A stretch of 64,000 nucleotides of DNA from assembly GCA_043808175.1 (NCBI GenBank), contig JAZDFE010000002.1:4906-68905 (forward strand), given 5' to 3'. Of the stretch, positions 21,111-35,096 are shown one piece after another. Under the pieces are notes generated by a model. That model searched no databases. It worked only from the letters and a program-made list of their open reading frames with translations, and was not told the origin of the DNA. How positions within the stretch are numbered: the stretch's first letter is position 1; the number at the start of each line of letters is the position of its first letter. The DNA comes from Candidatus Omnitrophota bacterium (GTDB taxonomy: Bacteria; Omnitrophota; Omnitrophia; Omnitrophales; Aquincolibacteriaceae). Both the position numbers and the translations under genes were made by a program.

Positions 21111-21111
21111 T

Positions 21112-21392: not shown

Positions 21393-21657
21393 CGGCGTAC
21401 TGGTTTATCATTTATTTAAAAAATAATAATGAAACTAGTACTGTCATGATTACCGTCCAAACTTTTCATTTCTTTTTCAAAACGGTAGTCGGCACTGATT
21501 TTCATTTAATTTTTAGATTGGAAATCAGTACAGTCCCAACCAACCCTTAAATGAATCGGAGGGTTGGGGCTGGACGGCCCCAATCTCAGCTATGCTTCGA
21601 TTGATAGGTATTGGGACCGTTTATTTTTTGATTGATGAAAATCATGGCGTACCGACC
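21393..21657. repeat. hairpin-module array (AT-loop family), modules in both orientations
   Basis: CTGGTTT..AAACTAGtactgtc; CTGATTTtcatttaat..AAATCAGtacagtc; CCCAACC..GGTTGGGgctggac; GGCCCCAAT..ATTGGGACC; inverted copy of the CCATGATTTTCAT module. Confidence 0.8.
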
Positions 21658-21707
21658 GGAAGAGAATGAGGATCAGGGAATGAAACGATTATTTCTGACG
21701 CTTACTC

Positions 21708-21771
21708 GAGCCACGAGCCAAGCACCACGCACCACGAAGCTCGTGTCCCGTGGTTCGTGGCACGTGTCCCC
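21708..21771. repeat. GC-rich heptad palindrome
   Basis: gagCCACGagCCAAGcaCCACGcaCCACG-aagct-CGTGTCCCGTGGttCGTGGcaCGTGTCC, directly after the histidine-kinase stop. Confidence 0.85.
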
Positions 21772-21774
21772 GTA

Positions 21775-22890
21775 CTATTTCCTGGGCAGCGTAAAAATAA
21801 ATTTGCTGCCCTTTCCCGGCTCGCTTTCGACCCAGATCCTGCCCTGATGAAGCTCGACAATGTCCTTGACGATGGGAAGTCCAAGACCGGTCCCTTCCTG
21901 TTTTTCGGCGGTCAGACGCTCGAATTTGTCGAACAACTTGCCAAAATCCTCCTTGGCGATCCCCGGCCCCGAATCGGAGATCTCGAAACGGACCTCTTCT
22001 TCAGTTCCGGAAAGGCGGAGGATGATCTTGCCGCCGGAAGGAGTGTATTTGACGGCGTTGCTGAGCAAATTGATGAGGACCTCGGTCAGCTTGTCACGGT
22101 CCGCCAGGACCTCGCCCGCGCTCTCTGAAAAATCTTTTTCGAGGAGAAGGTTCTTTTTCGAGATCTCATTGGCATCGCCGGCAAGGACCTCCTCGGCCAG
22201 GGCGGCGATCCCGAAACTTTCTTTTTTCAACTTCATCTTTCCCGCTTCGATCTTTGAAAGATCGAGAAGATCCGTGACCAGCCGGATAAGCCTTTCCGTA
22301 TTTTTGAGGGCGATCGTAAGCACCTCCCGCTGTTCCTCGCTCACCGCGCCGGCCGAACCGTCCAAGACATAGTCCAGCGAAAGCTGCATGTTGCTCAAGG
22401 GATTTTTGAATTCATGGGAGACATTGGCGACAAAAGCCGACTTCCGCTCGTCCATCTGTTTCAAAAGCTCCTCGGCCTCTTTGATCTTGCTGATATCATT
22501 CCCGACGCAGAGGATCTCCTTGGTCTCGCCCTTCGCGTCGGACAAGGCCTTATTGGTCCAGGCGATCCACACCCGCTCCCCGCTGCGAAGCATGTTCTCA
22601 TTTTCGTTATTCACATACTTCTCGGGATAGCGCACGATATCATCAACCATGGCCTTCTGGTCCCTGCCCGCGCTGTCCGTCACCGGCGCGATCGTCCCGA
22701 TGGCGCTTTTACCCAAGATCTCCTTCTCCTCAAATCCGAAGAACTCCTGCGCGAACTTATTGAGGAAGGTGATCCTGCCCTGGGTATCCATGCGCAGGAT
22801 GATGCTGTTGGCGTCCTGGACCAGCCTGCGATAAGAGTCCTCGCTTTGTCCGAGCGTCTTACCGGCTTTCATGCTGCTCATGCCTCCCAT
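21775..22890 (-). CDS. PAS-domain sensor histidine kinase
   Basis: PAS region (YRRLVQDANSIILRMD...). HisKA H-box VSHEFKNPLS. HATPase N/G boxes (NLLSNAVKYTP, DSGPGI, GTGLGLPIV). Confidence 0.9.
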   Translation of the reverse strand: MGGMSSMKAGKTLGQSEDSYRRLVQDANSIILRMDTQGRITFLNKFAQEFFGFEEKEILGKSAIGTIAPVTDSAGRDQKAMVDDIVRYPEKYVNNENENMLRSGERVWIAWTNKALSDAKGETKEILCVGNDISKIKEAEELLKQMDERKSAFVANVSHEFKNPLSNMQLSLDYVLDGSAGAVSEEQREVLTIALKNTERLIRLVTDLLDLSKIEAGKMKLKKESFGIAALAEEVLAGDANEISKKNLLLEKDFSESAGEVLADRDKLTEVLINLLSNAVKYTPSGGKIILRLSGTEEEVRFEISDSGPGIAKEDFGKLFDKFERLTAEKQEGTGLGLPIVKDIVELHQGRIWVESEPGKGSKFIFTLPRK

Positions 22891-22895
22891 CCCCT

Positions 22896-23279
22896 CTACT
22901 GCTCTTTCTGATCGTCGGATTCGGATTTTGGATGATCGACGGCATCGGCAATTTTTTGCTTCGCCATGAGGGTCTTGAAGTCTAAAGATTTTACCGCCTT
23001 CACAACCTCAGGGTCATAGGCGAGGGCCTGAACATTAGGATCGGAGGCCAGGCCGGCAACGGTTTTCATGACCTCCGGATCGTCCATGACCGCGGGCTGG
23101 AGCTCCTGCAACTCGCTGGGGAGATTCTCGGGATCGGAAGAGACGGTCCCTTCGGAGGATGGAACGCTCCCGTCATCCGGGGTGCTCCCGTCCGTTGATC
23201 CGGTCTCCTCTCCATAGACGGTGCCGGCAAGTAAGGCGAATGCCGAAACAAAAAACACAAGCAAAAGGATCTTTTTCAT
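22896..23279 (-). CDS. secreted hypothetical protein
   Basis: Signal peptide MKKILLLVFFVSAFALLAGTVYG. The acidic/Pro-rich mature part has no recognisable motif. Confidence 0.6.
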   Translation of the reverse strand: MKKILLLVFFVSAFALLAGTVYGEETGSTDGSTPDDGSVPSSEGTVSSDPENLPSELQELQPAVMDDPEVMKTVAGLASDPNVQALAYDPEVVKAVKSLDFKTLMAKQKIADAVDHPKSESDDQKEQ

Positions 23280-23295
23280 TTTATCTCCTATTCAT

Positions 23296-23715
23296 TTAAG
23301 TTCCCGCCATCTGCACCACGATATCGCGTTGGCGGGGGCGGTTGTCGAATTCCGTCAGGACCACCTGCTGCCACGTGCCGAGCGTGAGTTTACCGTTCTC
23401 GAACGGGATGACAAGCGACGGCCCCTGAAGGAGCGCGCGCAGGTGGCTGAACCCGTTGGCGTCCCCCCACGAAGCATCGTGCGCGTACCCGGTCTTGCGC
23501 GGGACAAGCTTTTCATAGAGCGCCCGGACGTCCTTGACCAGGCCCGGCTCATATTCGAACGTCGTGACCGCGGCCGTGGAACCGGTCACAAAAACCGTGA
23601 GACTTCCCTGCCTCAAGGCCGACCGCTTCAGGATCTCTACGATCCGCTCCGTCAGGTCGATCAGATCCGGATCGCCCTTCGTCTCCACCGTTATGTGCTC
23701 CGTGATGATCTTCAT
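23296..23715 (-). CDS. YjbQ/UPF0047 family protein (secondary thiamine-phosphate synthase-like)
   Basis: Trimmed to the ATG at 23715 (MKIITEHITVETKG...). Motifs TGSTAAVTTFEYEPG and GFSHLRALLQGPS. The upstream 32 codons of the ORF (PGTRDT repeats) are translated repeat DNA. Confidence 0.85.
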   Translation of the reverse strand: MKIITEHITVETKGDPDLIDLTERIVEILKRSALRQGSLTVFVTGSTAAVTTFEYEPGLVKDVRALYEKLVPRKTGYAHDASWGDANGFSHLRALLQGPSLVIPFENGKLTLGTWQQVVLTEFDNRPRQRDIVVQMAGT

Positions 23716-23727
23716 CTTCTTTTCGTT

Positions 23728-23820
23728 CCCCGTGTCCCTTGTCCCTGGAGTTATCGTGTCCCGTGTCCCCGGAATTTCGTGGCTCGTGGCCCGTGTCCCG
23801 ATGCCGTACACGTCACACCC
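23728..23820. repeat. GC-rich heptad repeat block
   Basis: CGTGTCCcttgtccctggagttatCGTGTCCCGTGTCCccggaatttCGTGGctCGTGGccCGTGTCC... Its right part is shared with 20805-20849. Confidence 0.85.
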
Positions 23821-23829
23821 AAGAAGTGA

Positions 23830-24106
23830 CGCCTGATTCTCCTATTAAGTTTTATAAAGAATCAGTGCAGCACCGACTTTCAATTAACTGCTCTTATCGA
23901 CAGTCGGTACGGCATCGTACTTGTTCACCGGCGCAAGTGCGGTCAGAGTACGAAGCTGATATTATGCTCCGACTCTGCCGTCCCAATACTTATCAATTTC
24001 TGCAAAGCAGAAATTGGGGCGGTCTTGGTTACCGTTGATCAAAAGAAAATTAAAACCAGGGCCGTACTTGTACACAGGTACAAGTGCCTACGGTACCGGT
24101 ACCGAT
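23830..24106. repeat. hairpin-module array (AT-loop family)
   Basis: The first two modules are identical to 20862-20942. Then come ACTTG..CAAGT, CAGAGT..ACTCTGccgtc, CCCAATACTTATCAATTTCTGC..GCAGAAATTGGGG, TGGTT..AACCAgggccgtac, ACTTGTACacagGTACAAGT and GGTACCGGTACC. Confidence 0.8.
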
Positions 24107-24126
24107 CTATTTTCATTTCAGCCTCC

Positions 24127-24768
24127 TTATGGAACCAACCGGGCGCCCATCTCAAAAGCCCTCCGGAGGTCCTTCGGAAAAACATCCCGCCGGCGGGCCG
24201 CCTTTTGGGCCGGATCGAAACGGGTCGCGACATATTTGGAATAATCATCAAACTGGAGCGTATCATACACCTGCAAGGTCTCCGCCGGCCCGAGGACCCT
24301 TCCCATCATGGCGCCCGTCTCGTTCAAGCTCCGGTCCCAGCCCAGCTGGACCGCCATCTTCTCCGTCGTGCCGAGGGCATAGAGGATCCCCACACGCATC
24401 TTCCCGGGGAAAAGCGACACCGACGGGTCCGTGTACGTGTAAAAAGGAAAAACCAGCCGCTCGATCAAAGAGCGCATCGCGCCCGTGGCGCAGCCCAGGT
24501 ACACCGGCGACCCCAGGAGGATCCCGCCGGCGGTCTCGATCTTCCGCAGGAACGGCGTCAGGCCGTCCTCCATCGCGCAGCGGCCGTAACTTTTTCCGCC
24601 TTTCAGCTTGCAGGAGAAACAACTCGTGCAGCCTTTATAATCCAGATCGTAAAGATGCACCAGTTCCGTCTCCGCCCCGCGCGAGGCCGCCCCTTCGAGC
24701 GCGCTCTTGAGCAAAAGGGCCGTGTTCCACTCCTTGCGGGGACTCCCGTTGAACGCAATGACCTTCAT
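24127..24768 (-). CDS. flavodoxin-like fold NAD(P)H-dependent FMN reductase / iron-sulfur flavoprotein family
   Basis: MKVIAFNGSPRKEWNT (typical N-terminus), Cys cluster CTSCFSC...C, GSPVYLGCATGAMRSLIERL. Confidence 0.75.
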   Translation of the reverse strand: MKVIAFNGSPRKEWNTALLLKSALEGAASRGAETELVHLYDLDYKGCTSCFSCKLKGGKSYGRCAMEDGLTPFLRKIETAGGILLGSPVYLGCATGAMRSLIERLVFPFYTYTDPSVSLFPGKMRVGILYALGTTEKMAVQLGWDRSLNETGAMMGRVLGPAETLQVYDTLQFDDYSKYVATRFDPAQKAARRRDVFPKDLRRAFEMGARLVP

Positions 24769-24847
24769 ACCGGATCCTTTCTCGGTTTGAATTGATGCCG
24801 GTTATCTTTGATCGCTCCTACCAGTCTCCGATACCCGCACTGTTTCT

Positions 24848-24903
24848 ACGTGTCCCGAGTCCCGTGTCCCCGGAATTTCGTGTCCCGTGTCCCCGTGTCC
24901 CCT
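24848..24903. repeat. GC-rich heptad repeat block
   Basis: aCGTGTCCCGAGTCCCGTGTCCccggaatttCGTGTCCCGTGTCCCCGTGTCCcc. Confidence 0.8.
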
Positions 24904-25267
24904 AATCTCGGAACTGTTCCCAAAGCCGCTTGAAGCGGGGTTCGTAGATAAGGTCGTAGAGATGCGTCTTATCCGGGAAAAGACTCCGGATCAGTTCTCT
25001 GAACTTCGCTTTTTCGATCTCGATATCCACGGCCTCGCTGTCGGTGCTCAGGATCAGGAACACGATCCGGTCCTGCATCTTCTTGATCTCGGATAATTTT
25101 TCCTCTTCGATCGCAAGGTCATACTGCAGGCAGATCCGGGCAAGCCGGGCGAGGACCTCATCGCCGCCAAGTCCGAGCGGGGCCCCGCAGGGACAGACGA
25201 TCTCGCGGCCGGACTTGAAAAGCGACGCGTCATATTCCTTTTGGCATTTCGGACACTTCACCGGCAT
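24902..25267 (-). CDS. zinc-ribbon hypothetical protein
   Basis: N-terminal CPKC...CPCG four-Cys knuckle. The helical remainder has no recognisable family motif. Confidence 0.55.
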   Translation of the reverse strand: MPVKCPKCQKEYDASLFKSGREIVCPCGAPLGLGGDEVLARLARICLQYDLAIEEEKLSEIKKMQDRIVFLILSTDSEAVDIEIEKAKFRELIRSLFPDKTHLYDLIYEPRFKRLWEQFRD

Positions 25268-25285
25268 GGCCCCTGTCTGCGACGC

Positions 25286-25564
25286 TTATTCCTTGATCTT
25301 GTCAAATTCCTCGACGGGAATAGCGGGAAAACTGGTGAAGGCAATACCGGTCAATTTATTTAACGCGATCGAAGCCTTCATCACTTCCGCAGTCCCGGGA
25401 AAATTGGTAATGACCACGAGGTCGTATTTTCCCAGAAGCGCGTAGGCGGAAACCAGCTTGCCTCCGGCCTTTGCGATCACCTCAGCCGCCTTTTGGGTCC
25501 TCTCGGCGGAAATGCCTCCCAGCGCCTCTTTGGAATATTTCCCGTACATGAAATAAACAGCCAT
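25286..25564 (-). CDS. GYD-domain protein
   Basis: Trimmed to the ATG at 25564, which has AGGAGG upstream. MAVYFMYGKYS...GKYDLVVI... matches the GYD family pattern. Confidence 0.75.
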   Translation of the reverse strand: MAVYFMYGKYSKEALGGISAERTQKAAEVIAKAGGKLVSAYALLGKYDLVVITNFPGTAEVMKASIALNKLTGIAFTSFPAIPVEEFDKIKE

Positions 25565-25660
25565 TTTTCCCTCCTTTTTCTTCGGTTTGAAACGACTCAT
25601 AGTCGGTTGAGAAAAAACACGGAAAAGACAAGTCCGGCCGTGTCCCGACGGTTCGTGGCT

Positions 25661-25775
25661 CGTGGCACGTGTCCCCGGAATTATTGTGTCCCGTGGTACG
25701 TGTCCCCGGAATTATTGTGTCCCGTGGCACGTGTCCCCGGAATTATTGTGTCCCATGGCTCGTGGCACGTGTCCC
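25661..25775. repeat. 3.5 tandem copies of a 31-nt unit (GC-rich heptad family variant)
   Basis: CGTGGCACGTGTCCCCGGAATTATTGTGTCC at 25661, 25692 (one substitution) and 25723, then a partial copy. The copies are contiguous with no spacers. Confidence 0.9.
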
Positions 25776-25780
25776 TGATT

Positions 25781-26152
25781 TTAGATCCGTTCTACGCTCA
25801 CGTGATCGCCGTCACGGACGGCGCCGAGAAGCGCTTTGAAATCGCCTTCGAGCTCCCCGAGGATGTTGCACCGGTCGGCAAGCCGGCATTCCGTACCTTT
25901 CGAGATGGGCGTGCGCCCGTAGGGCAATGCCAGACAGTTCCCCTGCGTCCAAAAACAAACCGTGCCGGGAACCACCACCTGATGGGCGTCCGCTTCAAGC
26001 GCCGCGCTCACGGGGACCTGAAAATAGACCTCGTTCCCCCACGTCTGCGCCGACGACGTCATAGGAAGCGCCGCGAGGATCTTGCCGGCTGTCGCCGTCT
26101 CCTTCAGCGTCGCAAAAATTTCAACTTCCCCGATTTTAATTTTAATTTGCAT
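25781..26152 (-). CDS. cyclophilin-like fold protein (small, function unknown)
   Basis: Trimmed to the ATG at 26152 (MQIKIKIGEVEIFATLKETATAGKILAALP...WGNEVYF...). The pattern matches the cyclophilin-like small-protein family. Confidence 0.65.
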   Translation of the reverse strand: MQIKIKIGEVEIFATLKETATAGKILAALPMTSSAQTWGNEVYFQVPVSAALEADAHQVVVPGTVCFWTQGNCLALPYGRTPISKGTECRLADRCNILGELEGDFKALLGAVRDGDHVSVERI

Positions 26153-26186
26153 CTTCTTTCCTTTTTCCGTTATCTGTTTCACTTTT

Positions 26187-26489
26187 TTATCTTATCGCAT
26201 AAAGCAAGAATAATACTACTCCCAAAACGGTTAATTTAAACGATAAGAATAATAGGGCGAATGGAACATTCGTTGCTTTGATCTTGCCCCGCAAATAAAG
26301 ATGGAGATTGTACAAAAAATAAGCGAGGAGGATCCCGTAGGCAACGGGACTGGCCCAGTGACAGCGCGTGCCGGCCGCAAAGAAATCAAACCCATAAATA
26401 ACAAGGGTTAAGAAAAACGAGACCGCATAGGGCCAGCAACAATCATGCTGGTAAAATACGCGGATATTTTCAATCAATGATCGCATCAT
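26187..26489 (-). CDS. small integral membrane protein (3 TM), hypothetical
   Basis: 100 aa with three hydrophobic segments and no motif. Confidence 0.5.
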   Translation of the reverse strand: MMRSLIENIRVFYQHDCCWPYAVSFFLTLVIYGFDFFAAGTRCHWASPVAYGILLAYFLYNLHLYLRGKIKATNVPFALLFLSFKLTVLGVVLFLLYAIR

Positions 26490-26525
26490 ATTCTAGCCGT
26501 CGAATGGTACCGGGGACCTTTCTCA

Positions 26526-27302
26526 TCAAGAAACCATGTAAAGCTCTTTCCAGATGGCTTCAAGTGCCTCAGCAGCGCCAAGGGGAATTTTAGTGTCCAC
26601 CCAACCGGAGATCTCGGTCTTGTCGGGGTTGATCTCCACGGTCGGTCTGTTGAGATCGGACGCAAGTGCCATGGGGTGCCGGATGTAAGGAAACACGCTC
26701 GTCGTTCCGATGGAAAAATAGATATCGAACGGCTGCCCCACCTCCCGCTCCATCAGGGCCACTTTATGCGGCTGCAGCCATTCCCCGAAGAAAACAACGT
26801 CCGGCCGGGCGATGGAATGACATTCCGGACAGCGCGGAGGAATGCTCAGGCGGTCATAATTCTCGACCCGGGTCTTCCAGCCGCATCTTTCACACCGGAG
26901 GTCGTGCATATCCCCGTGGATATCGATCACGTTCTTGGAGCCCGCCGCATGGTGAAAACCGTCGATATTCTGCGTCAGCACCCAGACCCGTTCGAAATGC
27001 CTCTCCATCTCCGCAATGATCTCGTGAGCGCGGTTATACCTGGCTCCCCGGCATCTTTTTTCTATCTGAGAAAGGTATTTCCACGTGATCTCGGGCTTTT
27101 TCCGGAGAGTCTCACCGGCTAGCGCCGTCTCGATCGGAATGCCGTCTTCCGTCGCGTCATTCTCATAAAGACCGCCCATCCCCCGGTAGGTCGGAAGCCC
27201 GGAATCCGCGGAGATCCCCGCGCCGGTGATGAACAGAATGCTCTTACAAGCTTTAAGAAGCTTCGCGACTTCTTTTATTTTTGAGTCGGCTGTTTGAACC
27301 AT
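26526..27302 (-). CDS. cobB: NAD-dependent protein deacylase (Sir2/CobB family)
   Basis: GAGISADSGLPTYRG. QNIDGFH (catalytic His). Zn ribbon CERCG...CPECH. The 258-aa size is canonical. Confidence 0.88.
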   Translation of the reverse strand: MVQTADSKIKEVAKLLKACKSILFITGAGISADSGLPTYRGMGGLYENDATEDGIPIETALAGETLRKKPEITWKYLSQIEKRCRGARYNRAHEIIAEMERHFERVWVLTQNIDGFHHAAGSKNVIDIHGDMHDLRCERCGWKTRVENYDRLSIPPRCPECHSIARPDVVFFGEWLQPHKVALMEREVGQPFDIYFSIGTTSVFPYIRHPMALASDLNRPTVEINPDKTEISGWVDTKIPLGAAEALEAIWKELYMVS

Positions 27303-27339
27303 GGGATACCCCGAATGAAACTCGAAAGGTACCGTTCAA

Positions 27340-27372
27340 CGAGTCCCGAGTCCCGAGTCCCGTGTCCCCTGT
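27340..27372. repeat. heptamer tandem CGAGTCC x3 + CGTGTCC
   Basis: CGAGTCCCGAGTCCCGAGTCCCGTGTCCcctg, immediately 3' of the metallopeptidase gene. The same junction occurs at 31872-31892. Confidence 0.85.
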
Positions 27373-27377
27373 TTTTG

Positions 27378-27755
27378 TCAGTAGGTCCCGTCTTTGATCA
27401 TGTGTTCATCCGAGATCCCGAAATAGTGCGCGAACTCATGAAGAACGGTATCCCGGACCGCCTTCCGAATCTCCCGCCGGCTGCGGCAGGACCGCGTGAG
27501 AGGCCCCCGGAAGACCGTGATCTTGTCCGGGAGAACGCTCCCGTCGTGGTGTGTCCTCTCCCCGAGCGGCACGCCTTCGTAAAGTCCCAGCAGGTCTTCT
27601 CCGGCCCCGGTCTCCTTTTTTTGACGGGCCGATGGCTCCTCCAGGATCACGATATTGATGTTCTCGAGCTTGCGCTTGAACTCCCGGGGAAGACTTTTCA
27701 CCGCGTCCCGGACCAATGCCTCGAATTCCCGCGTCGTCAAAAATCTTTTTTCCAT
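27378..27755 (-). CDS. small zincin-like metallopeptidase family protein (copy 1)
   Basis: 125 aa with C-terminal HEFAHYFG (HExxH). Nearly identical to 31899-32250. Confidence 0.75.
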   Translation of the reverse strand: MEKRFLTTREFEALVRDAVKSLPREFKRKLENINIVILEEPSARQKKETGAGEDLLGLYEGVPLGERTHHDGSVLPDKITVFRGPLTRSCRSRREIRKAVRDTVLHEFAHYFGISDEHMIKDGTY

Positions 27756-27765
27756 TTCAGAACCT

Positions 27766-27835
27766 TACCGGCCGTTGCCGTCTCCTTCAGCGTCGCAAAA
27801 ATCTCGATCTTCCCGATCTTAATTCTGATCTTCAT
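27766..27835 (-). pseudogene. 5' fragment of a cyclophilin-like gene
   Basis: MKIRIKIGKIEIFATLKETATAG, equivalent to the first ~23 codons of 25781-26152, then unrelated sequence. Confidence 0.6.
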
Positions 27836-27914
27836 CCTCTTTCGTTCTCCGTGACTCATTTCACGTTCTTTGTTAATGAAGTGATGTGTCCCCTGATTTG
27901 TGTTTATTGGTTCC

Positions 27915-28256
27915 TTACGCAAAAGCGGTTTTAAGCCAAACATGCGTGGCCGCCACTCTCTCTTCCCGGCGTTTCGGATGGATCACGATCTCCACATCCT
28001 TATCAAGCGCGTTCAAGATCTCGAACAAGTAGTCCAGAGAGAATGCGCTGAGCTTTCCGTTCATGAGGCAGGACACCTTGGATTGAGGGATCCCGAGAAG
28101 TTTGGCCGCCCGTTTTTGCGTCAGGCCCCGTTCCCGGAGGATCTCCGCGATACGAGACATCACTTTCGCGCGGGTCTGAACGCGATCCGGATACTCGGCC
28201 CCGATATCCGCAAAAACATTCCCGCTTCCCCGTTGGATTTTTTCCTTTCCGCTCAT
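27915..28256 (-). CDS. XRE-family HTH regulator (HigA-like, no adjacent toxin ORF seen)
   Basis: Trimmed to the ATG at 28256. GSGNVFADIG...LTQKRAAKLLGIPQSKVSCLMNGKL (HTH_3). Confidence 0.8.
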   Translation of the reverse strand: MSGKEKIQRGSGNVFADIGAEYPDRVQTRAKVMSRIAEILRERGLTQKRAAKLLGIPQSKVSCLMNGKLSAFSLDYLFEILNALDKDVEIVIHPKRREERVAATHVWLKTAFA

Positions 28257-28263
28257 GCTCCCT

Positions 28264-28292
28264 AATATACCATATTTGGTATAATTGCTCAA
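28264..28292 (-). promoter_or_regulatory. putative promoter with embedded operator palindrome for the XRE gene
   Basis: The minus strand reads TTGAGC-17 nt-TATATT. The spacer contains the palindrome ATACCA-aata-TGGTAT (28267-28282). The -10 ends 7 nt before the ATG, so the mRNA may be leaderless. Confidence 0.45.
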
Positions 28293-28565
28293 GTTTAACC
28301 CGGAAAATCCTTTATGTTCTTCCCCATAGTTTACCATGAGGGCAGAGAATGGAGCTTCTGTTTCAAAAGTTTTTGGTCGATCAGCTTCGTTTTATAGGTC
28401 GCGACCTTAATGGGAGACACGGCTTTGCTGACGGCGATTCTCGCGACAGTGTCGCGAGTTTTTCACTGTGCCGGTCACTCTCATGGAATTGCCTCATCCT
28501 CCAAAGAGTAGCGGCAAGGAAGGTTAGCGGAGATCTGCGGCAGCCCGTCCGGACTTCACGATTTC

Positions 28566-28877
28566 CTATGAAAAACTGGGGGGAGATGCTTTTTTCACGG
28601 CTGGAACAACACGGATCTGCACGGTAAGACCCAGAAAACGGAGGACTTTCTCAAGCGCGGCAATGCTTGTGAATTCACCGCTCTCGATCTTGGAAATATA
28701 TTGTTGCGTTACTCCGGCTTTTCCAGCAAGATCCGTCTGGGTCCATCCATGCCGGATCCGGGCCGCAATGATCCGCTTCACGATTTGGAACTTCTGCGTC
28801 TCCAGCTCATAGAGTTCGCGGAAATGAGGATCCTTCAGCTCCTCTTTCAAATGATCGTCGACTTTGCTGAGCCTCAT
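28566..28877 (-). CDS. XRE-family antitoxin (HigA-type)
   Basis: WTQTDLAGKAGVTQQYISKIESGE HTH. ATGA overlap with the upstream toxin ORF. Confidence 0.8.
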   Translation of the reverse strand: MRLSKVDDHLKEELKDPHFRELYELETQKFQIVKRIIAARIRHGWTQTDLAGKAGVTQQYISKIESGEFTSIAALEKVLRFLGLTVQIRVVPAVKKASPPSFS

Positions 28878-29236
28878 AAAATCCCTCTCATCCGTCCATG
28901 CAAATACGCCTCCCGACTCCTGACCGCAAAGGCGATCTCCCTTTCCGGGGTCTGCATGGTCTTTTTAATGAAACCGTTTGTAAAGATGACGTTGCCACTT
29001 TCCACAAAAAAATAAAGCGCCCGAAGCGCTCCTTCCCGGCCCGTCCACCTCAGTTCAAAGATCTTTTGACCGAGGTATTTCACGTAGGGCTCTCTCAAGG
29101 CGTAACCGAACGCCTCCAACAGGCCCCGGACCGCGAAAAACTTCCGCCTCGAAGCGGGCTCCAACGACATGATGAATTCTTTAGCCGGGATCCGTCCCGC
29201 ACCGGTTTCAAGATAATAACAAGTGACGGCGCTCAT
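28874..29236 (-). CDS. RelE/ParE-superfamily toxin (phage Gp49-like / HigB-type)
   Basis: Trimmed to the ATG at 29236. Contains ...IFELRWTGREGALRALYFFVESGNVIFTNGFIKK..TP.REI, typical of the Gp49/DUF891 family. Confidence 0.75.
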   Translation of the reverse strand: MSAVTCYYLETGAGRIPAKEFIMSLEPASRRKFFAVRGLLEAFGYALREPYVKYLGQKIFELRWTGREGALRALYFFVESGNVIFTNGFIKKTMQTPEREIAFAVRSREAYLHGRMRGIL

Positions 29237-29497
29237 GGGAAGTATACAACCAGATAGTTGTTTTTGCAAGGGATGTTCATGAACAGGATATTATGACTAA
29301 ATTAAGCTTAAGTCAATTTTATTTTGCTTTTAAATCATTTTGTAAAAAAACTACCCCTTTCGGACTTGATGACATGGTGACTTGATAGTAAGGCTAGCTT
29401 TAGGCTATGAGCTATCGGGTACGTGCTACGCTCTAAGCGTAGCGGCAGGGAGAGCTAGGATCGAAGTAGGTCCGGAGAGGCGGTGTCCCGGAATAAC

Positions 29498-29644
29498 GAA
29501 AAAGCCGCGCTTAAATGGCGCGGCTTTGTGGAGATAGATCTCCCGGCGCTTTAGCACATTTCCCGTCCCGCAGGACGGTGCTCGCCCACATGGGGTCAAG
29601 CTTTAGCGGAGCAAGTAACCTCTTTAAATCACCGCTTCTTCTAT
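29498..29644 (-). ncRNA. candidate ~150-nt sRNA, copy 1
   Basis: Conserved promoter (29651-29679), several hairpins (CCGTCC-tgcg-GGACGG; GGAGA-tcta-TCTCC; a 10-bp helix with a G-U that is valid only on the minus strand) and the intrinsic terminator GCCGCGC-catttaa-GCGCGGC-TTTTT. About 95 percent identical to 31563-31709. Confidence 0.5.
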
Positions 29645-29650
29645 ATAAGA

Positions 29651-29679
29651 ACTGTAGCTGACCTATCGCGTTTTGACAA
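29651..29679 (-). promoter_or_regulatory. sigma70-like promoter of sRNA candidate copy 1
   Basis: The minus strand reads TTGTCA-17 nt-TACAGT. Both hexamers are conserved in copy 2 while the 17-nt spacer sequence differs. Confidence 0.5.
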
Positions 29680-29715
29680 GAAAGCGAGACCTAGCAAGAA
29701 CTAACAGGAGCCGGG

Positions 29716-29775
29716 GTCATTCATTTCCAACCATTCTTCAATGAACCCGGCACTTAGGGTACCGGCACCGATCCA
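29716..29775. repeat. hairpin module (AT-loop family)
   Basis: CCGGGGTCattcatttccaaccattcttcaatGAACCCGG followed by GGTACCGGCACC. Related module at 30447-30488. Confidence 0.6.
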
Positions 29776-30378
29776 TTAACGTAAATAGGCAAGCACGCGA
29801 TAACTCATCGTTTTGCCCGGTGTTCGGTTGATGATCGTCACCCGTAAATATTTCCCGTAAACGGGTGTGTAAAGCGCTCGGCCCGTGGTCGGCCCCGTGG
29901 TAAGTGTCGCGAAATTCGGATGCCCTTCCCCATTGTCTTCGGCAAGTGAAGCGCCAAACTCCTGAACGCCCTGGTCCACCAAACGCGCGTCCTCACCTCC
30001 GGACTTATGATAGACCGTCGTCATCGCCGTCATCGAGAAATAGGCCTTCAGCTCATACATGGGCGTGATCGCCTGTTTCGTCAAAATACTTTCCGGAAAA
30101 GCTTCGACAAAAAGCGTGATCTCTTCATATCCGCTCACGTCAATATACACGGACTCTTGACTCTTGCCGCTTTCAAGTTGGACTTTGGCGAGAACCTCCA
30201 ACTCCTTTTTTTCTTTGATGACTTTGACGGGAGTGGGCTGCTCTGCAGCTGCAGCAATGACTCCTTGTGTTTCTGCAGCCAAAGATATCCCCGGCGATAA
30301 TACAAGCATGAGGAACCACATAGCATGGCAACATTTTCGAAGGATTCTTGATTCCATGCGGGCCATTATACAGCACAT
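29776..30378 (-). CDS. secreted hypothetical protein
   Basis: 200-aa ORF whose start is uncertain among five Met codons. Signal-like MWFLMLVLSPGISLAAE. No motif recognised. Confidence 0.55.
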   Translation of the reverse strand: MCCIMARMESRILRKCCHAMWFLMLVLSPGISLAAETQGVIAAAAEQPTPVKVIKEKKELEVLAKVQLESGKSQESVYIDVSGYEEITLFVEAFPESILTKQAITPMYELKAYFSMTAMTTVYHKSGGEDARLVDQGVQEFGASLAEDNGEGHPNFATLTTGPTTGRALYTPVYGKYLRVTIINRTPGKTMSYRVLAYLR

Positions 30379-30446
30379 GAAACTTGGATGTTACTAAAAC
30401 GTCCCCACCCTTTCCACTGCGCTTCAAGGGCGATACAAATCATCGA

Positions 30447-30732
30447 GGCCGGGATCATTCATTTTCATCCATGCTTTAATGGACCCGGCTCGATACCGCA
30501 CGCACTGAACGACCCATAAAGCTTAAATGAAGTTTAGTGCTGTCCCAATCAACCCTTAAAATTAATGGGAGGATTGGGACGCGACCTACCTTAAAAAGCG
30601 GCGGTATCGCCTGGTTTCATTTAAGAGATGATTGAGAACCAGTGCTGTCCTGGCCTCCGATTAATTTTCCAATGATAGCCAGGGCGTACTTGTACACAGG
30701 CACAAGTGCTTGGGGTACCGGTACCGGTCCGG
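30447..30732. repeat. hairpin-module array (AT-loop family)
   Basis: CCGGGATC..GGACCCGG; CACTGAAC..GTTTAGTGctgtc (G-T pair valid on the + strand reading); CCCAATC..GATTGGGacgcgac. After that, 30606-30709 is about 95 percent identical to 20943-21046. Ends with GGTACCGGTACCGG. Confidence 0.8.
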
Positions 30733-30733
30733 T

Positions 30734-31033
30734 TTATTTCCTAGCGACCGCTTTAAATCCGACCCCCGCGTGATGAAGTAAGAGAAGGATATTGAGGAAC
30801 CCCGGATTGCCGTTCCCGGAAAGCATCTTATAAAGACTCACCCGGTGGATCTTGCTCGTTCTCGCGAACCGGGTCATCCCTCCGCGGGCGTCGATCACGT
30901 TCTTTAATGCCATCAGGAACGCCTTTTTATCTCCCGCCTCCAGTGCCGCGTTAAGGTACTCTGCCGCCTCCTCGGGATCCTTCAAGGTCTTCAATAACCA
31001 ATCGCGATAGCTGACTGCCGGTGGCACTTTCAT
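30734..31033 (-). CDS. addiction-module antidote protein (HigA-family DNA-binding antitoxin)
   Basis: Trimmed to the ATG at 31033 (ATGA overlap with the killer gene). DPEEAAEYLNAALEAGD...GMTRFARTSKIHRVSLYKMLS. Confidence 0.75.
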   Translation of the reverse strand: MKVPPAVSYRDWLLKTLKDPEEAAEYLNAALEAGDKKAFLMALKNVIDARGGMTRFARTSKIHRVSLYKMLSGNGNPGFLNILLLLHHAGVGFKAVARK

Positions 31034-31353
31034 TGTTTTCTCCTTAGGTAATCTTGCCAATAAAAACAGGCCTTCTGAATATCTTTGTCCTGGGTCGATT
31101 TATCACCGCCGCACAAGAGAATCACAAGCATGGCGCCGTCCAATCCGAAATACACACGGTACCCCGGTCCAAAATGGAATCGCAGTTCCCAAATACCGGT
31201 CCCCACAAGCTTCGTGTCACCAAAATTCCCAAAAAACAGCCGGTCAATACGGGTTTTAATGCGGGTCCGCACCCGGGCATCCTTTAAACTTTCCATCCAT
31301 TCGTCAAAGGGCTGGCGTCCATCCGCGGCCTGATAGAAAAGAACTTCTATCAT
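31030..31353 (-). CDS. addiction-module killer protein (RelE/HigB-like toxin)
   Basis: 107 aa. Contains ...FGNFGDTKLVGTGIWELRFHFGPGYRVYFGLDGAMLVILLCGGDKSTQ..DI, typical of this toxin family. Confidence 0.75.
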   Translation of the reverse strand: MIEVLFYQAADGRQPFDEWMESLKDARVRTRIKTRIDRLFFGNFGDTKLVGTGIWELRFHFGPGYRVYFGLDGAMLVILLCGGDKSTQDKDIQKACFYWQDYLRRKQ

Positions 31354-31443
31354 GCGCGACCTCTATGATCACTAACATGAAGATATCCCATAGCGCCTCG
31401 TTTGTCAACTATAGTTTACACGAATAATATTTAACTATATTCA

Positions 31444-31472
31444 TATAATAATTGATTATTATGGAATGTCAA
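31444..31472 (-). promoter_or_regulatory. possible promoter of the killer/antidote operon
   Basis: The minus strand reads TTGACA (31467-31472), 16 nt, TATTAT, within an AT-rich tract ~90 nt upstream of the toxin ATG. Confidence 0.35.
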
Positions 31473-31562
31473 GAAAGGAGCTTTTAAAAGGTGTGGCTTA
31501 ATGGGAAGGGCTTAATGATCGGGGAAAAAAACGGAAACGGGACAACGCACAGTTTGTAAAAC

Positions 31563-31709
31563 GAAAAAGCCGCGCGATTGAGCGCGGCTTTTCTGGAGAT
31601 AGATCTCCCGGCGCTTTAGCACATTTCCCGTCCCGCAGGACGGTGCTCGCCCACATGGGGTCGGGCTTTAGCGGAGCAAGTAACCTCTTTAAATCACCGC
31701 TTCTTCTAT
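31563..31709 (-). ncRNA. candidate ~150-nt sRNA, copy 2
   Basis: Same hairpins and terminator (GCCGCGC-tcaatc-GCGCGGC-TTTTT) as copy 1. The promoter is at 31716-31744. Confidence 0.5.
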
Positions 31710-31715
31710 AAAAGA

Positions 31716-31744
31716 ACTGTAGCCGGCCTTTTACGTTTTGACAA
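31716..31744 (-). promoter_or_regulatory. sigma70-like promoter of sRNA candidate copy 2
   Basis: The minus strand reads TTGTCA-17 nt-TACAGT, with a spacer sequence different from copy 1. Confidence 0.5.
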
Positions 31745-31847
31745 GAAAGCGAGACCTAGCAAGAACTAACAGGAGCCGAGGTCAACTCCCCCAGCGCCGC
31801 GAAAACCTCGATTTTCCCGATCTTGATTTTAATCTTCATTTTCTTTC

Positions 31848-31892
31848 GCTCCACGCTCCACGTTCCACGAATCCCGAGTCCCGTGTCCCCTG
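31848..31892. repeat. GC-rich heptad repeat block
   Basis: gctCCACGctCCACGttCCACGaatcCCGAGTCCCGTGTCCcctg. Confidence 0.8.
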
Positions 31893-31898
31893 TTTTTG

Positions 31899-32282
31899 TC
31901 AGTAGGTCCCGTCTTTGATCATGTGTTCATCCGAGATCCCGAAATAATGCGCGAACTCATGAAGAACGGTATCCCGGACCGCCTTCCGCATCTCCCGCCG
32001 GCTGCGGCAGGACCGCATGAGAGGCCCCCGGAAGACCGTGATCTTGTCCGGGAGAACGCTCCCGTCGTGGTGCGTCCTCTCCCCGAGCGGCACGCCTTCG
32101 TAAAGCCCCAGCAGGTCTTCTCCGGCCCCGGTCTCCTTTTTTTGACGGGCCGATGGCTCCTCCAGGATCACGATATTGATGTTCGCGAGCTTGCGCTTGA
32201 ACTCCCGGGGAAGACTTTTCACCGCGTCCCGGACCAGCGCCTCGAATTCCCCGATCTTAATTTTGATCTTCATCGGATTCAA
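31899..32282 (-). CDS. small zincin-like metallopeptidase family protein (copy 2, chimeric N-terminus)
   Basis: Identical to copy 1 from EFEALVRDAVK... to HEFAHYFG...GTY, apart from a few substitutions. The N-terminus MNPMKIKIKIG derives from a cyclophilin-like gene start, joined by an ~82-bp deletion relative to copy 1. Confidence 0.7.
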   Translation of the reverse strand: MNPMKIKIKIGEFEALVRDAVKSLPREFKRKLANINIVILEEPSARQKKETGAGEDLLGLYEGVPLGERTHHDGSVLPDKITVFRGPLMRSCRSRREMRKAVRDTVLHEFAHYFGISDEHMIKDGTY

Positions 32283-32320
32283 TTAGGTGATGTGTCCCTG
32301 AAATACCTGGCACCGTTCGA

Positions 32321-32872
32321 CTAGAAAATAATGCATTTATCCAAATCGAAAACGGTGGGTTGAGCGCTTCCCGGTCCCGTGGCATCCAGCGTTCCGTTAC
32401 ATTCGTGGCAATAATAAATGGTTTTAAGATACTTCTTCTCAAGAAGCGGGGGAATATGATCGTAGAATTTCTTATCCCCAGGATGTTGCTCGGCCCAAAA
32501 CGCGTAAAGCCCCTTTTGCTTTTTCGCACCATTACATTCCCGGCATGCCCACACTTGATTATGAATTTCCTGTACTCTCGAGCAATCTGGACACCGCTCG
32601 TTAATCTTGATCGTCTTGGGAACGATGTGCTCCCATTGGAGGGTTTCTTCGCTCCCACAATAAACGCATTTTTTCTCGGACTGAGCAAATTGTTTGTCCT
32701 CTCGCAGAATGTCTGACCACTTCTTCTTGTCAGTTTTTAAATCGCGGAAGGTTTGCTTCACGAACCCGTACGCGCTCTTCTTCGCGTCCTCCCCCATCGC
32801 GCTCTTGGCAATGATCTTCGCGTATTGGTACCAGATCAGATCCTGGATCGTTTTAACGTCTCTGTCAGGCAT
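32321..32872 (-). CDS. HNH endonuclease (small, Zn-ribbon type)
   Basis: CVYCGS...LQWEHIVP...NQVWACRECNGAKK is an HNH core flanked by CxxC pairs. Confidence 0.75.
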   Translation of the reverse strand: MPDRDVKTIQDLIWYQYAKIIAKSAMGEDAKKSAYGFVKQTFRDLKTDKKKWSDILREDKQFAQSEKKCVYCGSEETLQWEHIVPKTIKINERCPDCSRVQEIHNQVWACRECNGAKKQKGLYAFWAEQHPGDKKFYDHIPPLLEKKYLKTIYYCHECNGTLDATGPGSAQPTVFDLDKCIIF

Positions 32873-32884
32873 GAAAATTAGTTT

Positions 32885-33820
32885 CTAGTTAGGTGTAAAG
32901 TTCTTAAATTTTCCGTAGCGGATCTCAAGGCGATCTGGGTCGGGATGATCTTTGTGCGAACGGGGCAGGATCAGCCGCTGATCATTCAAAGCCTGTAGGC
33001 CATGCAACAAAATCGGCCCGTCCTCTTCCTCAAGAACATCTTTTCGCACTTTAATGACATAATCAGGACGTATTCCCAGGACAAAACGATCAAAAGCTGT
33101 GTGATGGAGATTGCATAAAGAAATGCCATTCGGAACGACCGGATCACCCTTGGGTTCTGAATCCGGGATAATGTGAATTGCTTCGAGAAGTTCGGGATGC
33201 CTCAGCCGACACATCGCACACTGCTCCCGGTAAGCTCGTAATACTTGCACTCTAAATTTTTGTTGATGAAGACGATATTTCATTTGAGCCGTCATATATC
33301 GTCTCTTCGCATCTTCCTCTCCGGGTTCGCTGACTTGGTAACCATTTACTCGCATTTGAGCTATACGGGCAACCTTCTCCTCATCAACTAATACTTTAAA
33401 TGTTAGCTTGGATGGATCGTCACCCTCCACAGTAACTGGCCAAACGGGAAAATACTTACCCTCTTCTACACAATACAAATACACAAGAGGCACTTTCCGT
33501 ATCATTGCTTCGCGCAAAGCCGCATTTTGCCAATGGTTTGGATTGGTCCCCATGTATCGATATAGCAAATAACCACTCGGATCATGTTTATCATCATATG
33601 GGGATTCAAGCGCTGTTCTGATCGTCAATGGAAGCTCGGGTAGGATTTCCGGCTTAAAGATCCCTTGCGGCCCTAGTAATCGGATCTTTTTATTCTGGTA
33701 GGGTACGCCCTCGTTAAGTAATTTCCACGGCAGCACTTCCCCATAAATTAGTGTCTGCTCTTTGAGCCATTCAAAAACTCTCAAACGAACTTTTGCATCG
33801 ATGTCGTTTGGGGATTCCAT
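32885..33820 (-). CDS. HNH (HNH_2-type) endonuclease with an N-terminal DNA-reader-like domain; putative type IV restriction enzyme (COG3440-like)
   Basis: C-terminal QKFRVQVLRAYREQCAMCRL...LEAIHIIP...NGISLCNLHHTAFD. N-terminal LLYRYMGTNPNHWQNAALREAM...PLVYL block, typical of this predicted restriction-endonuclease family. Confidence 0.7.
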   Translation of the reverse strand: MESPNDIDAKVRLRVFEWLKEQTLIYGEVLPWKLLNEGVPYQNKKIRLLGPQGIFKPEILPELPLTIRTALESPYDDKHDPSGYLLYRYMGTNPNHWQNAALREAMIRKVPLVYLYCVEEGKYFPVWPVTVEGDDPSKLTFKVLVDEEKVARIAQMRVNGYQVSEPGEEDAKRRYMTAQMKYRLHQQKFRVQVLRAYREQCAMCRLRHPELLEAIHIIPDSEPKGDPVVPNGISLCNLHHTAFDRFVLGIRPDYVIKVRKDVLEEEDGPILLHGLQALNDQRLILPRSHKDHPDPDRLEIRYGKFKNFTPN

Positions 33821-33824
33821 CGGA

Positions 33825-34952
33825 TTAATTTAAGACTGTGGCTGGATTTACGGATTCGCCAACGCTAAGTAAGACGTTCGGATCAAAATCGAGACTATTT
33901 TTATTAGATTCATCAATTTCCCGAATTTTCTCATAACCCAAGAAGCGAATAACTTCATTTAACCGAAGACAGGGGCCCGAAAAGGTGGGACGTCTTAGCT
34001 CATTAAAAACTTTGGTCCGGCGCGTCTCTGAGGCAACAATAAAAAGTGGATAGTTTGAGTTTGGATTTTCTGCTCTTAGATCTGATAGCCTCAAGATCCC
34101 GGAGTAAATCTGGGTAGAATTTTCTACTTCGAAGGCAGATTTGATGGAATAAGGACCAAACTTCCACACGACATCAATATTTTTAATGCTTGGAGGGACA
34201 TCAAGTGTTTCATGAAATTCCGGCAGGACAAGCTCTCTGAAAGTGTGTCCTTCAAATTCTCTGCCCTGGTCATTACGGGGAACCCAAACATCACATCGAG
34301 CCAAACGACCTAACCGAATTAATCGCCACTGCATTTCCGTGTGTTCGGTTGGCGCTTGGGCTATAAACTCCTCCTCTTTTTCTTTGATGCTTTTTGCCTG
34401 CGGAGCGATATTGACCAGTTCTTCCCCTTTTTCTAAGGTCTTGAGCACCCCTAAAATATCCCCGTATCTGCTAAAAAAGTTTTTGACGGCTTCTTCGTTG
34501 ACCATTGAGAAACCACGAGGAAAATAGTTTTCCTTATAACCAAAGAGAACATTTAGCTTGTTAAAAGGGACATTGATGCGTTCATCGTTGACGATAAAAT
34601 AGATAAACTCCCAGGTCGTTCCGCCCTCTTTTTCTTGCCAAAAATACCGCGCGAGGTCCCGGCTGTGCACTTTGGCTGCCACCTCGCCAACAGCGCGGAT
34701 TCTTCCCCCGTTATAGATCAATACCACATCACCTGCTGCCATATTCTCCCAGTTCCGTTGGTTAGATTGCCCAGGAACAGCACCCCAAACAATAAACGGA
34801 GAATTATGGTAGATGTCTTGGAGGTTTTTTATCTCTTGCTCAGGTAGGAACTTTCGGACTTCTTCGAGACTGCGCTTACGCTGGATGGTATCTTCAAAAT
34901 GCCGTTCGGCTGCTAAATTTCCGCCTGCAACGACAATGAAAATCTTTCTCAT
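33825..34952 (-). CDS. two-domain protein: N-terminal PUA-like (EVE/ASCH-type) reader + C-terminal PD-(D/E)xK-like nuclease; putative modification-dependent restriction enzyme
   Basis: N-terminal pattern FIVWGAVPG....NWENMAAGDVVLIYNGGRIRAVGEVAAKV resembles PUA-like folds. C-terminal QWRLIRLGR..CDVWVP...IDVVWK...AFEVENST.IYSGILRLSDL resembles restriction-endonuclease-like cores. The assignment is inferred, not searched. Confidence 0.55.
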   Translation of the reverse strand: MRKIFIVVAGGNLAAERHFEDTIQRKRSLEEVRKFLPEQEIKNLQDIYHNSPFIVWGAVPGQSNQRNWENMAAGDVVLIYNGGRIRAVGEVAAKVHSRDLARYFWQEKEGGTTWEFIYFIVNDERINVPFNKLNVLFGYKENYFPRGFSMVNEEAVKNFFSRYGDILGVLKTLEKGEELVNIAPQAKSIKEKEEEFIAQAPTEHTEMQWRLIRLGRLARCDVWVPRNDQGREFEGHTFRELVLPEFHETLDVPPSIKNIDVVWKFGPYSIKSAFEVENSTQIYSGILRLSDLRAENPNSNYPLFIVASETRRTKVFNELRRPTFSGPCLRLNEVIRFLGYEKIREIDESNKNSLDFDPNVLLSVGESVNPATVLN

Positions 34953-34980
34953 TTGTTCCTCGGTTTTCTTATAAAAACAG

Positions 34981-35096
34981 ACGTCCTACGAATGAACACC
35001 CTGGCTTTTAATTATTCCACCATCCGTACGGCACTTGTACCGATGCACAAGTACGGCAGGGTCACTTTTCAAGGTTAATCGTGTACCCTGACCGCG
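34981..35096. repeat. hairpin-module array (AT-loop family, partly inverted orientation)
   Basis: ACGTCCTACGAATG is the reverse complement of the CATTCGTAGGACG leader. CACTTGTACcgatGCACAAGTA; GGGTCA..TGTACCCtgaccgcg. Confidence 0.65.

Follow-up and report, generated by a model that had tools for sequence, protein, structure and literature searches.

How did a bacterial genome come to hold the same small gene twice, once with a start that belongs to another gene? The question is raised by a 64,000-nucleotide stretch of DNA from a Candidatus Omnitrophota bacterium (assembly GCA_043808175.1, contig JAZDFE010000002.1, positions 4,906 to 68,905; hereafter the window), in which two direct copies of a module carrying a Zincin_1 metallopeptidase gene bracket a segment of unrelated genes. 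In one copy the peptidase gene is canonical; in the other it is chimeric and starts with the first codons of a cyclophilin-like gene. An earlier note on this DNA had proposed that the duplication created the chimeric gene. Comparison with related loci indicates instead that the chimera is an established allele common to several populations, which probably arose once, before the window genome, and not as a by-product of the duplication in the window.

Two direct copies of a Zincin_1 module

Local alignment paired 27347-27728 with 31868-32249, a 382-bp match with nine mismatches (97.6% identity) and a start-to-start spacing of 4521, within which the longest perfect runs were 78, 75, 55 and 51 bp. 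Repeat search pushed the low-coordinate end of both copies to 27333 and 31854. The direct duplication of heptamers, Zincin_1 gene, cyclophilin-like stub and 5′ untranslated region (5′UTR) that had been described is thereby borne out. Copy 1 of the module (27333-27880) consists of a heptamer array, the canonical Zincin_1 gene, a truncated cyclophilin-like start (stub B) and the 5′UTR; copy 2 (31854-32286) carries deletions of 83 bp and ~38 bp. Both copies lie on the minus strand, as do their heptamer arrays, the stubs and the bracketed genes given below. At the larger deletion, 83 bp of copy 1 (27729-27811, placeable up to 2 nt rightward), comprising stub B codons 9-32 and Zincin_1 codons 1-9, are missing from copy 2; the deletion that had been put at ~82 bp (27733-27813) stands, with its size and ends adjusted. 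Beyond the gap, 27812-27836 corresponds to 32250-32274 over 25 bp with one mismatch, and ~38 bp of 5′UTR (27837-27874) are likewise missing from copy 2.

True homology stops at the high-coordinate end with the 5′UTR start ATCAC, at ~27880 and ~32286. A 5′UTR starting with ATCAC is common to copy 1, copy 2 and the related loci L011 and L041. The earlier note had carried the repeat on into a tail; the repeat is sound, but the rest of that tail (GTGTCCCCTGA) is a generic gene-end motif with 26 occurrences at 20.1-32.3 kb. Right after the ATCAC 5′UTR the motif reads GTGTCCCC, found 26 times on one strand and always within 20158-32292; at copy 1 it belongs to the upstream XRE gene, and at copy 2 to the upstream 183-aa gene. 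At the opposite end, the homology of locus L010 to the Sir2 module begins exactly at 27333, the end of the copy 1 module. The two copies have the same orientation and share identity tracts longer than the minimal pairing segment, which makes them an adequate potential substrate for direct-repeat recombination.

The canonical gene (27378-27755) encodes 125 aa with the N-terminus MEKRFLTTREFEALV, and the chimeric gene (31899-32273) encodes 124 aa, in which MKIKIKIG is followed by EFEALV; MKIKIKIGEFEALVR is a peptide of the latter. Both match PF06262 in Pfam over profile positions 1-94 of 97, with 96.2 bits for copy 1 (E=1.2e-27) and 96.3 bits for copy 2 (E=1.1e-27) against a cut-off of 22.4, and both translations keep HEFAH, the HExxH zinc-binding motif. 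In gene orientation, copy 2 reads ATG AAG ATC AAA ATT AAG ATC GGG and then GAA TTC GAG: the first eight codons come from the cyclophilin-like start, and the frame runs on into Zincin_1 at its codon 10 (EFEALV). The in-frame MKIKIKIG-EFEALV fusion noted in the open reading frame (ORF) 31899-32282 was confirmed: the frame is intact from ATG at 32273 or TTG at 32282 to the stop at 31899, and it is annotated as MFH1207995.1. NCBI places this protein and the canonical one (MFH1207988.1) on one 114,615-bp contig; the accessions are seven apart and thus leave room for six proteins, in agreement with the six genes between the copies.

The closest proteins to the two Zincin_1 copies come from Candidatus Omnitrophota metagenome-assembled genomes. 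Among 25 close homologues, the N-termini were variable short tails followed by EFEALVRDAVKSLP, the commonest start being MEKRSLTAREFEALV. Their likeness to copy 1 indicates that copy 1 is canonical and copy 2 derived, which is the direction proposed before and also agrees with L001 and L010, where the same stub precedes a full gene. The fusion affected only the N-terminal tail, which is poorly conserved, and spared the catalytic domain; both copies are probably functional genes.

The fusion junction in other assemblies

In L011 (JBDRCT010000014), positions 2516-2896 are collinear with copy 2 through the junction (window 32273-31893, 94.5% identity), and the chimeric protein (MFH1799717.1) starts with MKIKIKTGEFEALV. 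L041, from Joint Genome Institute metagenome 3300067036, is 97.3% identical to window 32273-31899; its stub and junction are identical to those of copy 2, and an element termed D7 follows the chimera by 47 nt, just as D7-2 follows copy 2. Three independent assemblies (those of the window, L011 and L041) have the junction MKIKIK[I/T]G-EFEALV with four Gs, each with a different upstream flank of the chimera. The same four-G junction in independent assemblies suggests one origin and argues against an artefact or an event private to the window genome. The claim that the duplication created the chimeric gene is therefore not supported.

The nucleotides at the joint bear on how it formed. In copy 1, TTCCCG (three Cs) stands at both deletion endpoints; copy 2 has GAATTCCCCGATC (four Cs). 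A simple slip in present-day copy 1 gives three Cs and so cannot yield this junction. The full-length cyclophilin-like gene has GGGGAA at codons 8-9 (26125-26133, ATCGGGGAAGTT), and the junction would fit a stub bearing GGGGAA that recombined with CGGGAATTC over the 5-nt microhomology GGGAA. Hence the short homology that had been suspected at the deletion endpoints is retained, and its derivation from present-day copy 1 is not. We infer a single origin through microhomology-mediated deletion.

The similarity of the two copies could nonetheless be read as a recent duplication of a ~0.5-kb module within the window genome, after which an 83-bp microhomology deletion in copy 2 made the chimera. 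The copies are mutually closest (97.8% identity, compared with 94-95% to L010 and L011), they share derived synonymous states at four alignment columns (98, 110, 287 and 293), and stub D, the eight cyclophilin-like codons of copy 2, differs from stub B at 1 of 25 positions only. The four-G junction, however, is also found in L011 and L041 in other contexts, copy 2 has four Cs where a slip in present-day copy 1 would leave three, L041 and copy 2 have in common a T>M change (column 241) as well as the junction, and the adjacency of chimera and D7 is conserved in L041. We regard such a recent duplication as improbable.

Synonymous divergence (dS) was 0.062 between copies 1 and 2, 0.076 between copy 2 and L041, 0.131 between copy 1 and L041, 0.122 between copy 2 and L011, and 0.179 between copy 1 and L011. 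These values and the site patterns conflict with any single tree, which suggests that the copies probably exchanged sequence. Under either tree, at least one gene-conversion or recombination event would be needed. The ratio of non-synonymous to synonymous change (omega) was 0.09-0.42 across all pairs, indicating that canonical and chimeric forms are both under purifying selection.

Remodelling of the Zincin_1 5′ end

L001 and L010 (isolate fen_1321; ~92-94% nucleotide identity) contain a single Zincin_1 gene with the structure of copy 1. In both, a 32-aa stub ORF (MQIKIKIGKVEVF...KWKKDL and a stop) overlaps the peptidase start, and the Zincin_1 gene has an HNH_2 gene upstream and a toxin–antitoxin (TA) antidote gene downstream, as at copy 2. 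Since these loci share the stub and the full gene, the stub-Zincin_1 arrangement appears to be old. L013 has two Zincin_1 copies of its own, which lie 1776 bp apart, are 96.4% identical, are independent of those in the window, and bracket ORF6N and HTH genes; their homology begins at the same GGGAATTC as in the window. These observations suggest that the Zincin_1 5′ end is a recurrent remodelling site, which is tolerated because the tail before EFEALV is unconstrained.

L013 also contains 65-nt inverted repeats at 8136-8200 and 9936-10000, 91% complementary, which flank the Zincin-a, ORF6N and MqsA-like genes and belong to the hairpin family described below. Within this segment (8116-10000), seven codons of the canonical Zincin_1 start form a stub immediately beyond the left arm, and the right arm supplies the N-terminal codons of Zincin-b.

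Four copies of the cyclophilin-like start are present in the window, one in the full-length gene (25781-26152, also given as 25781-26182, minus strand; PF04126, E=8e-30), the source family of the stubs, and the others in stubs of 26, ~16 and 8 codons. Stub B (27737-27835) has 26 cyclophilin-like codons, then KWKKDF and a stop that overlaps the Zincin_1 start, and it is also present in L001 and L010. Stub C (31785-31850) consists of a ribosome-binding site (RBS) and ~16 cyclophilin-like codons fused to a D7 small-RNA gene, also in L010 and L011; stub D (32250-32273) is identified by alignment as the first eight codons, in frame to Zincin_1. For the stub of L011, an origin as a recombinant between stubs B and C was considered and set aside, as the alignment shows no clear switch point. 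Among relatives, the cyclophilin-like start precedes Zincin_1, the D7 small-RNA gene and a GNAT gene. Each fusion type is found in several genomes, suggesting old joints that are being reshuffled rather than ongoing site-specific events, and the different stub lengths (8, 16, 24 and 26 codons) count against a fixed recombination site. A search of the protein database for short stubs, with the cyclophilin-like protein as query, returned only near-full-length homologues (96-138 aa).

At 370-421 of L011, before a DUF3175 gene, a nested stub carries eight cyclophilin-like and seven Zincin_1 codons (MKIKIKTGEFEALVR). This nested stub is a record of two successive replacements at one 5′ end.

Might the stub itself be a device? 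An RBS with 8-26 cyclophilin-like codons, in some cases accompanied by the shared 5′UTR, could serve this Omnitrophota lineage as a portable adapter for the capture, expression and reshuffling of unrelated genes and a small-RNA gene through homologous or microhomology recombination, possibly together with the G-rich heptamer arrays and hairpin repeats. If this were so, the region would be a recombinase-free integron-like cassette system, of which the Zincin_1 pair would be one product and the L011 nested stub a record of serial use. We give rather little credence to this idea.

The DNA between the copies

Pfam agreed with the gene labels and contents previously assigned to the DNA between the repeats. 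Next to copy 1 is an HTH_37 XRE gene (27915-28337), an orphaned HigA-type antitoxin, followed by the remnant of a DUF1016/YhcG PDDEXK nuclease gene (28338-28511). Twice in the bracket, adjacent small genes of a toxin family and an antitoxin family form a type II TA pair: a Gp49 (HigB-like) toxin gene (28874-29269) with an HTH_3 antitoxin gene (28566-28877; together 28566-29269), and a Gp49-like killer gene (31030-31353) with a dnstrm_HI1420 antidote gene (30734-31060; together 30734-31353). Between these pairs lie a candidate D7 small-RNA gene (29495-29684) and a 200-aa ORF (29776-30378) with a hydrophobic N-terminus and no Pfam family. A second candidate D7 copy, detected by repeat search, is at 31560-31749.

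Several of these parts are found elsewhere. In L013, but not in the window, a Gp49 toxin gene (11840-12223) accompanies the XRE gene, so that the "orphan" appears to be a stranded antitoxin; in L011 the XRE gene follows a DUF1016/YhcG gene that is still intact and that the window retains as the remnant only. The dnstrm_HI1420 antidote gene and its promoter region are syntenic with L001 and L010. No counterpart of the HigBA pair or the 200-aa ORF was seen among the related loci examined. The D7 candidate also occurs in L010 (13696-13922), L011 (4888-5108) and L041 (922-1101). Its first window copy has a promoter-like TTGTCA-N17-TACAGT, a predicted transcript of ~150 nt and an intrinsic terminator. 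The predicted transcript has several hairpins, with the terminator stem kept, the loop variable and little covariation across five sequences. A search of Rfam families with the repeats and D7 gave only tRNA-Met and one chance isrJ match (E=0.35).

The bracketed DNA is not a simple unit: two small-RNA genes are nested in it, some of its repeats have partners beyond the bracket, and its parts occur in other orders in relatives. RecA-mediated recombination between the repeats could in principle delete or amplify the 4.5-kb unit, and the excision or amplification suggested earlier is mechanistically reasonable, but it is unsupported: neither a single-repeat junction nor an amplified one was present in any related locus compared, exact look-ups of five window proteins, made to find other assemblies with alternative junctions, found none, and a metagenome scan gave two loci only, neither informative on junctions.

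The guanine-plus-cytosine (GC) fraction was 0.47-0.52 in the bracket, 0.42-0.47 at 32.4-35.6 kb, and 0.55-0.60 in the backbone and both Zincin_1 copies. One allele might have arrived from a related strain on circular or transformed accessory DNA and integrated by homology at Zincin_1 or other repeats, by a Campbell-type event or homology-facilitated illegitimate recombination, leaving resident and incoming copies as direct repeats around cargo. Consistent with this, Zincin_1 copies of native GC (0.56) flank TA cargo of lower GC, the canonical and chimeric alleles occur separately in other genomes, and L013 has a second, independent Zincin_1 bracket around genes of mobile-element type (ORF6N, HTH). 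Moreover, TA and restriction–modification (RM) genes are reportedly typical of the cargo that Omnitrophota chromosomes have in common with circular elements, and homologous recombination has been named among the possible routes (bioRxiv 10.64898/2026.05.20.726742); acquisition would agree with such TA/RM exchange. On the other side, no replication, mobilisation or integrase gene was found in or near the segment, the bracketed DNA has no plasmid, phage or viral contig matches, the site pattern is unlike a single crossover, and the low-GC DNA runs past copy 2 to ~35.6 kb. Acquisition of one allele is thus a possible explanation, which we judge unlikely.

It should also be asked whether the two copies are real neighbours, since canonical and chimeric strain variants of one locus could have been joined through shared repeats during assembly. 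In favour of this, the DNA comes from a metagenome-assembled genome, the divergence of the copies (2.4%) is of strain level, both allele types exist singly in nature, and the joints specific to the window come from one assembly and are unverified. Against an artefact, perfect identity is at most 78 bp between the copies and 69 bp between the D7 copies, where it is longest, and the large k-mers that common assemblers use exceed such runs, which gives each copy a unique path. The flanks of the copies are unique, and the XRE-UTR-stub order in L011, the chimera-D7 order in L041 and the stub-Zincin_1 order in L010 provide partial corroboration; in addition, L013 shows that two-copy arrangements exist in the clade. 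Because perfect identity never exceeds 78 bp and most adjacencies recur in other assemblies, we consider a misassembly decidedly improbable.

The accessory region and its dispersed repeats

The window is chromosomal, with genes for AcrB-type efflux, TPR proteins, ValRS, UvrB, aspartate kinase, homoserine dehydrogenase and tRNA-Met. The Zincin_1 modules lie in the region from ~20 to 35 kb, which is rich in dispersed repeats and where some 20 small genes, unrelated to each other, share one strand (Macro, DUF2934, PAS-kinase, UPF0047, FMN_red, GYD, Cyclophil_like, SIR2, Zincin_1, TA modules and HNH among them), with several promoter-like sites inside the co-oriented array. Pfam places the SIR2 gene downstream of copy 1. 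In relatives the same genes (~75-94% nucleotide identity) are ordered differently, and the breakpoints fall at the edges of genes.

A site-specific cassette array, integron-like or otherwise, with the repeat as a pair of cassette boundaries, might be expected to look similar: the small genes are unrelated and co-oriented and include TA modules, motifs recur at gene ends, and relatives differ in gene order gene by gene. Yet no integrase, tyrosine or serine recombinase or transposase was found among the Pfam-scanned large ORFs of the 64-kb window. The 20-35 kb region has no RYYYAAC...GTTRRRY pair, compared with 2.4 ± 2.1 in shuffles, a count made without a dedicated attC covariance model. The variable stub lengths show that the joints are not at a fixed site, and heptamers are almost absent from relatives with the same shuffling. 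We find a cassette array hardly credible. A prophage, integrative and conjugative element or genomic island was rejected as well: no integrase was found in the 64 kb, and instead of short identical att sites the repeats comprise an entire gene whose mismatches are spread evenly.

The heptamers form arrays at gene ends. Directly 3′ of the copy 1 stop, (GGGACNC)x4 at 27340-27368 fits a G-quadruplex motif, with four runs of at least three Gs and 4-nt loops at 27341-27368; the array 3′ of the copy 2 stop spans 31847-31889, and the homology with copy 1 ends inside it. Folding gave no hairpin in the copy 1 array (z=-0.09), and a role of the arrays as intrinsic terminators was discarded on this ground. 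Sense-strand G-rich heptamers (GGGACAC, GGGACTC, GTGCCAC and GAGCCAC) stand directly after stops throughout 20158-32292, for example at 24849-24902 and 25653-25775. GTGTCCC occurs 26 times on the plus strand of the window, all within this 12-kb stretch. Palindromic arrays, in which ..CCACG.. faces ..CGTGG.., are located at 5088-5137, 46299-46361, 47551-47772 and 50731-50780, so that such heptamers, unlike the GTGTCCC variant, also exist beyond 20-32 kb. Heptamers as universal cassette boundaries were rejected, being nearly absent from L011 and L013, which shuffle anyway.

A second class consists of mosaic intergenic hairpin repeats, with copies 85-97% identical at 20797-21066, 21480-21620, 23768-24107, 29710-29775, 30448-30730, 41649-41698 and 43208-43295. 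For one module (20826-20948), folding on either strand predicts a four-way junction (z=-5.5). The family has no Rfam match. Members of this family stand at rearrangement joints in L011 and L013.

Beyond copy 2, a low-GC block (32321-35000; 0.42-0.47) contains the HNH_5-like 183-aa gene, an HNH_2 gene and a 375-aa gene without a Pfam family, and may be a defence island. The 183-aa gene is upstream of Zincin_1 in the window and downstream of it in L013. The 183-aa genes of L001 and the window were tried as orthologues and proved unrelated; synteny is anchored instead by the HNH_2 gene and by the region of the TA antidote. Elsewhere, three direct repeats at 10127-11622 (period 621-642 bp, 75-90% identical) lie inside an 849-aa ORF (9622-12171) with no Pfam match.

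Discussion

Based on these findings, we propose, with moderate confidence, that the window holds two paralogous direct Zincin_1 modules in a recombination-prone accessory region, with the following history. First, a truncated cyclophilin-like 5′ stub (RBS plus 26 codons) would have been placed upstream of Zincin_1, overlapping its start, an arrangement kept by copy 1, L001 and L010. In one ancestor, a deletion of ~83 bp, probably via GGGAA, would then have brought stub codon 8 and Zincin_1 codon 10 together in one frame. The chimeric allele would have persisted under purifying selection, and it is now in at least three assemblies. The window genome would subsequently have come to hold both forms, between which sequence was exchanged by gene conversion or recombination, as suggested by canonical and chimeric copies that are more alike than their histories allow. 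Finally, lower-GC cargo such as TA modules would have been accreted or reshuffled between the copies by homologous and illegitimate recombination, with dispersed stubs, small-RNA genes, hairpin repeats and heptamer arrays as substrates and no dedicated recombinase. The order of events is our inference, and any present-day excision or amplification would be one too.

Some observations weigh against this history. Fewer than 10 informative sites stand behind the gene-conversion argument. The private changes of copy 2 are all non-synonymous (E>A and I>M, with T>M shared with L041), and the five of copy 1 are all synonymous (Fisher p ~0.05-0.1); suggestively only, copy 2 may be relaxing rather than maintained. 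The canonical and chimeric forms were never together in any related locus, and the window genome could have acquired one allele recently from a relative. Moreover, the joints between Zincin1 and Sir2, between the 183-aa gene and Zincin2, and between Zincin2 and stub C were seen in one assembly only.

The feature is real, and the earlier note read it correctly from the sequence; in kind it is ordinary, combining a gene duplication with a fusion allele in an accessory region rich in recombination, and it reveals no new mechanism. Its value is that of a clean, datable case of a small gene gaining a new start, from the parked stub through microhomology fusion, survival and spread to co-existence with the parental form. 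It also shows that these uncultured bacteria rebuild their accessory region one gene at a time, with no recombinase in evidence.

The region is reminiscent of several known systems. Like sedentary chromosomal integron arrays, it has co-oriented small genes, TA modules and cassette-like shuffling; unlike them, it has no IntI, no attI/attC architecture and variable joints. Its intergenic spaces, built of a few hairpin modules after genes, resemble those with repetitive extragenic palindromic (REP) sequences and bacterial interspersed mosaic elements (BIMEs), and repeats of this type are known recombination substrates. The sequences here, however, are unrelated to enterobacterial REPs and have no Rfam match, and the heptamer arrays lack hairpins. 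The orphan cdiA-CT/cdiI and rhs-CT modules offer another parallel, with short gene pieces before displaced downstream modules as possible recombination anchors, and by this analogy the L011 nested stub would correspond to serial replacement. In our case, by contrast, the stubs are N-terminal translation-initiation regions and not internal conserved motifs, and in place of toxin/immunity pairs they precede a small-RNA gene and unrelated genes of a housekeeping-like kind.

RecA-dependent deletion and tandem amplification are known between rrn operons or insertion sequence (IS) copies in enterobacteria and in the amplifiable units of Streptomyces. The Zincin_1 modules share with these systems same-orientation repeats of several hundred bp, identical runs above the minimal pairing length and a few kb of dispensable bracketed genes; they differ in that the repeat is a protein-coding gene rather than an IS or rRNA, and in that no deletion or amplification product was observed. 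The closest counterpart in kind is a dispersed duplication with a microhomology-mediated in-frame fusion, with which the locus has in common direct repeats of ~98% identity, a short G-rich microhomology at the junction, a retained catalytic domain and the swap of a dispensable N-terminal tail. It departs from that pattern in two ways: the fusion partner is a 5′ stub already parked upstream, and the fusion is probably older than the genome that carries both copies.

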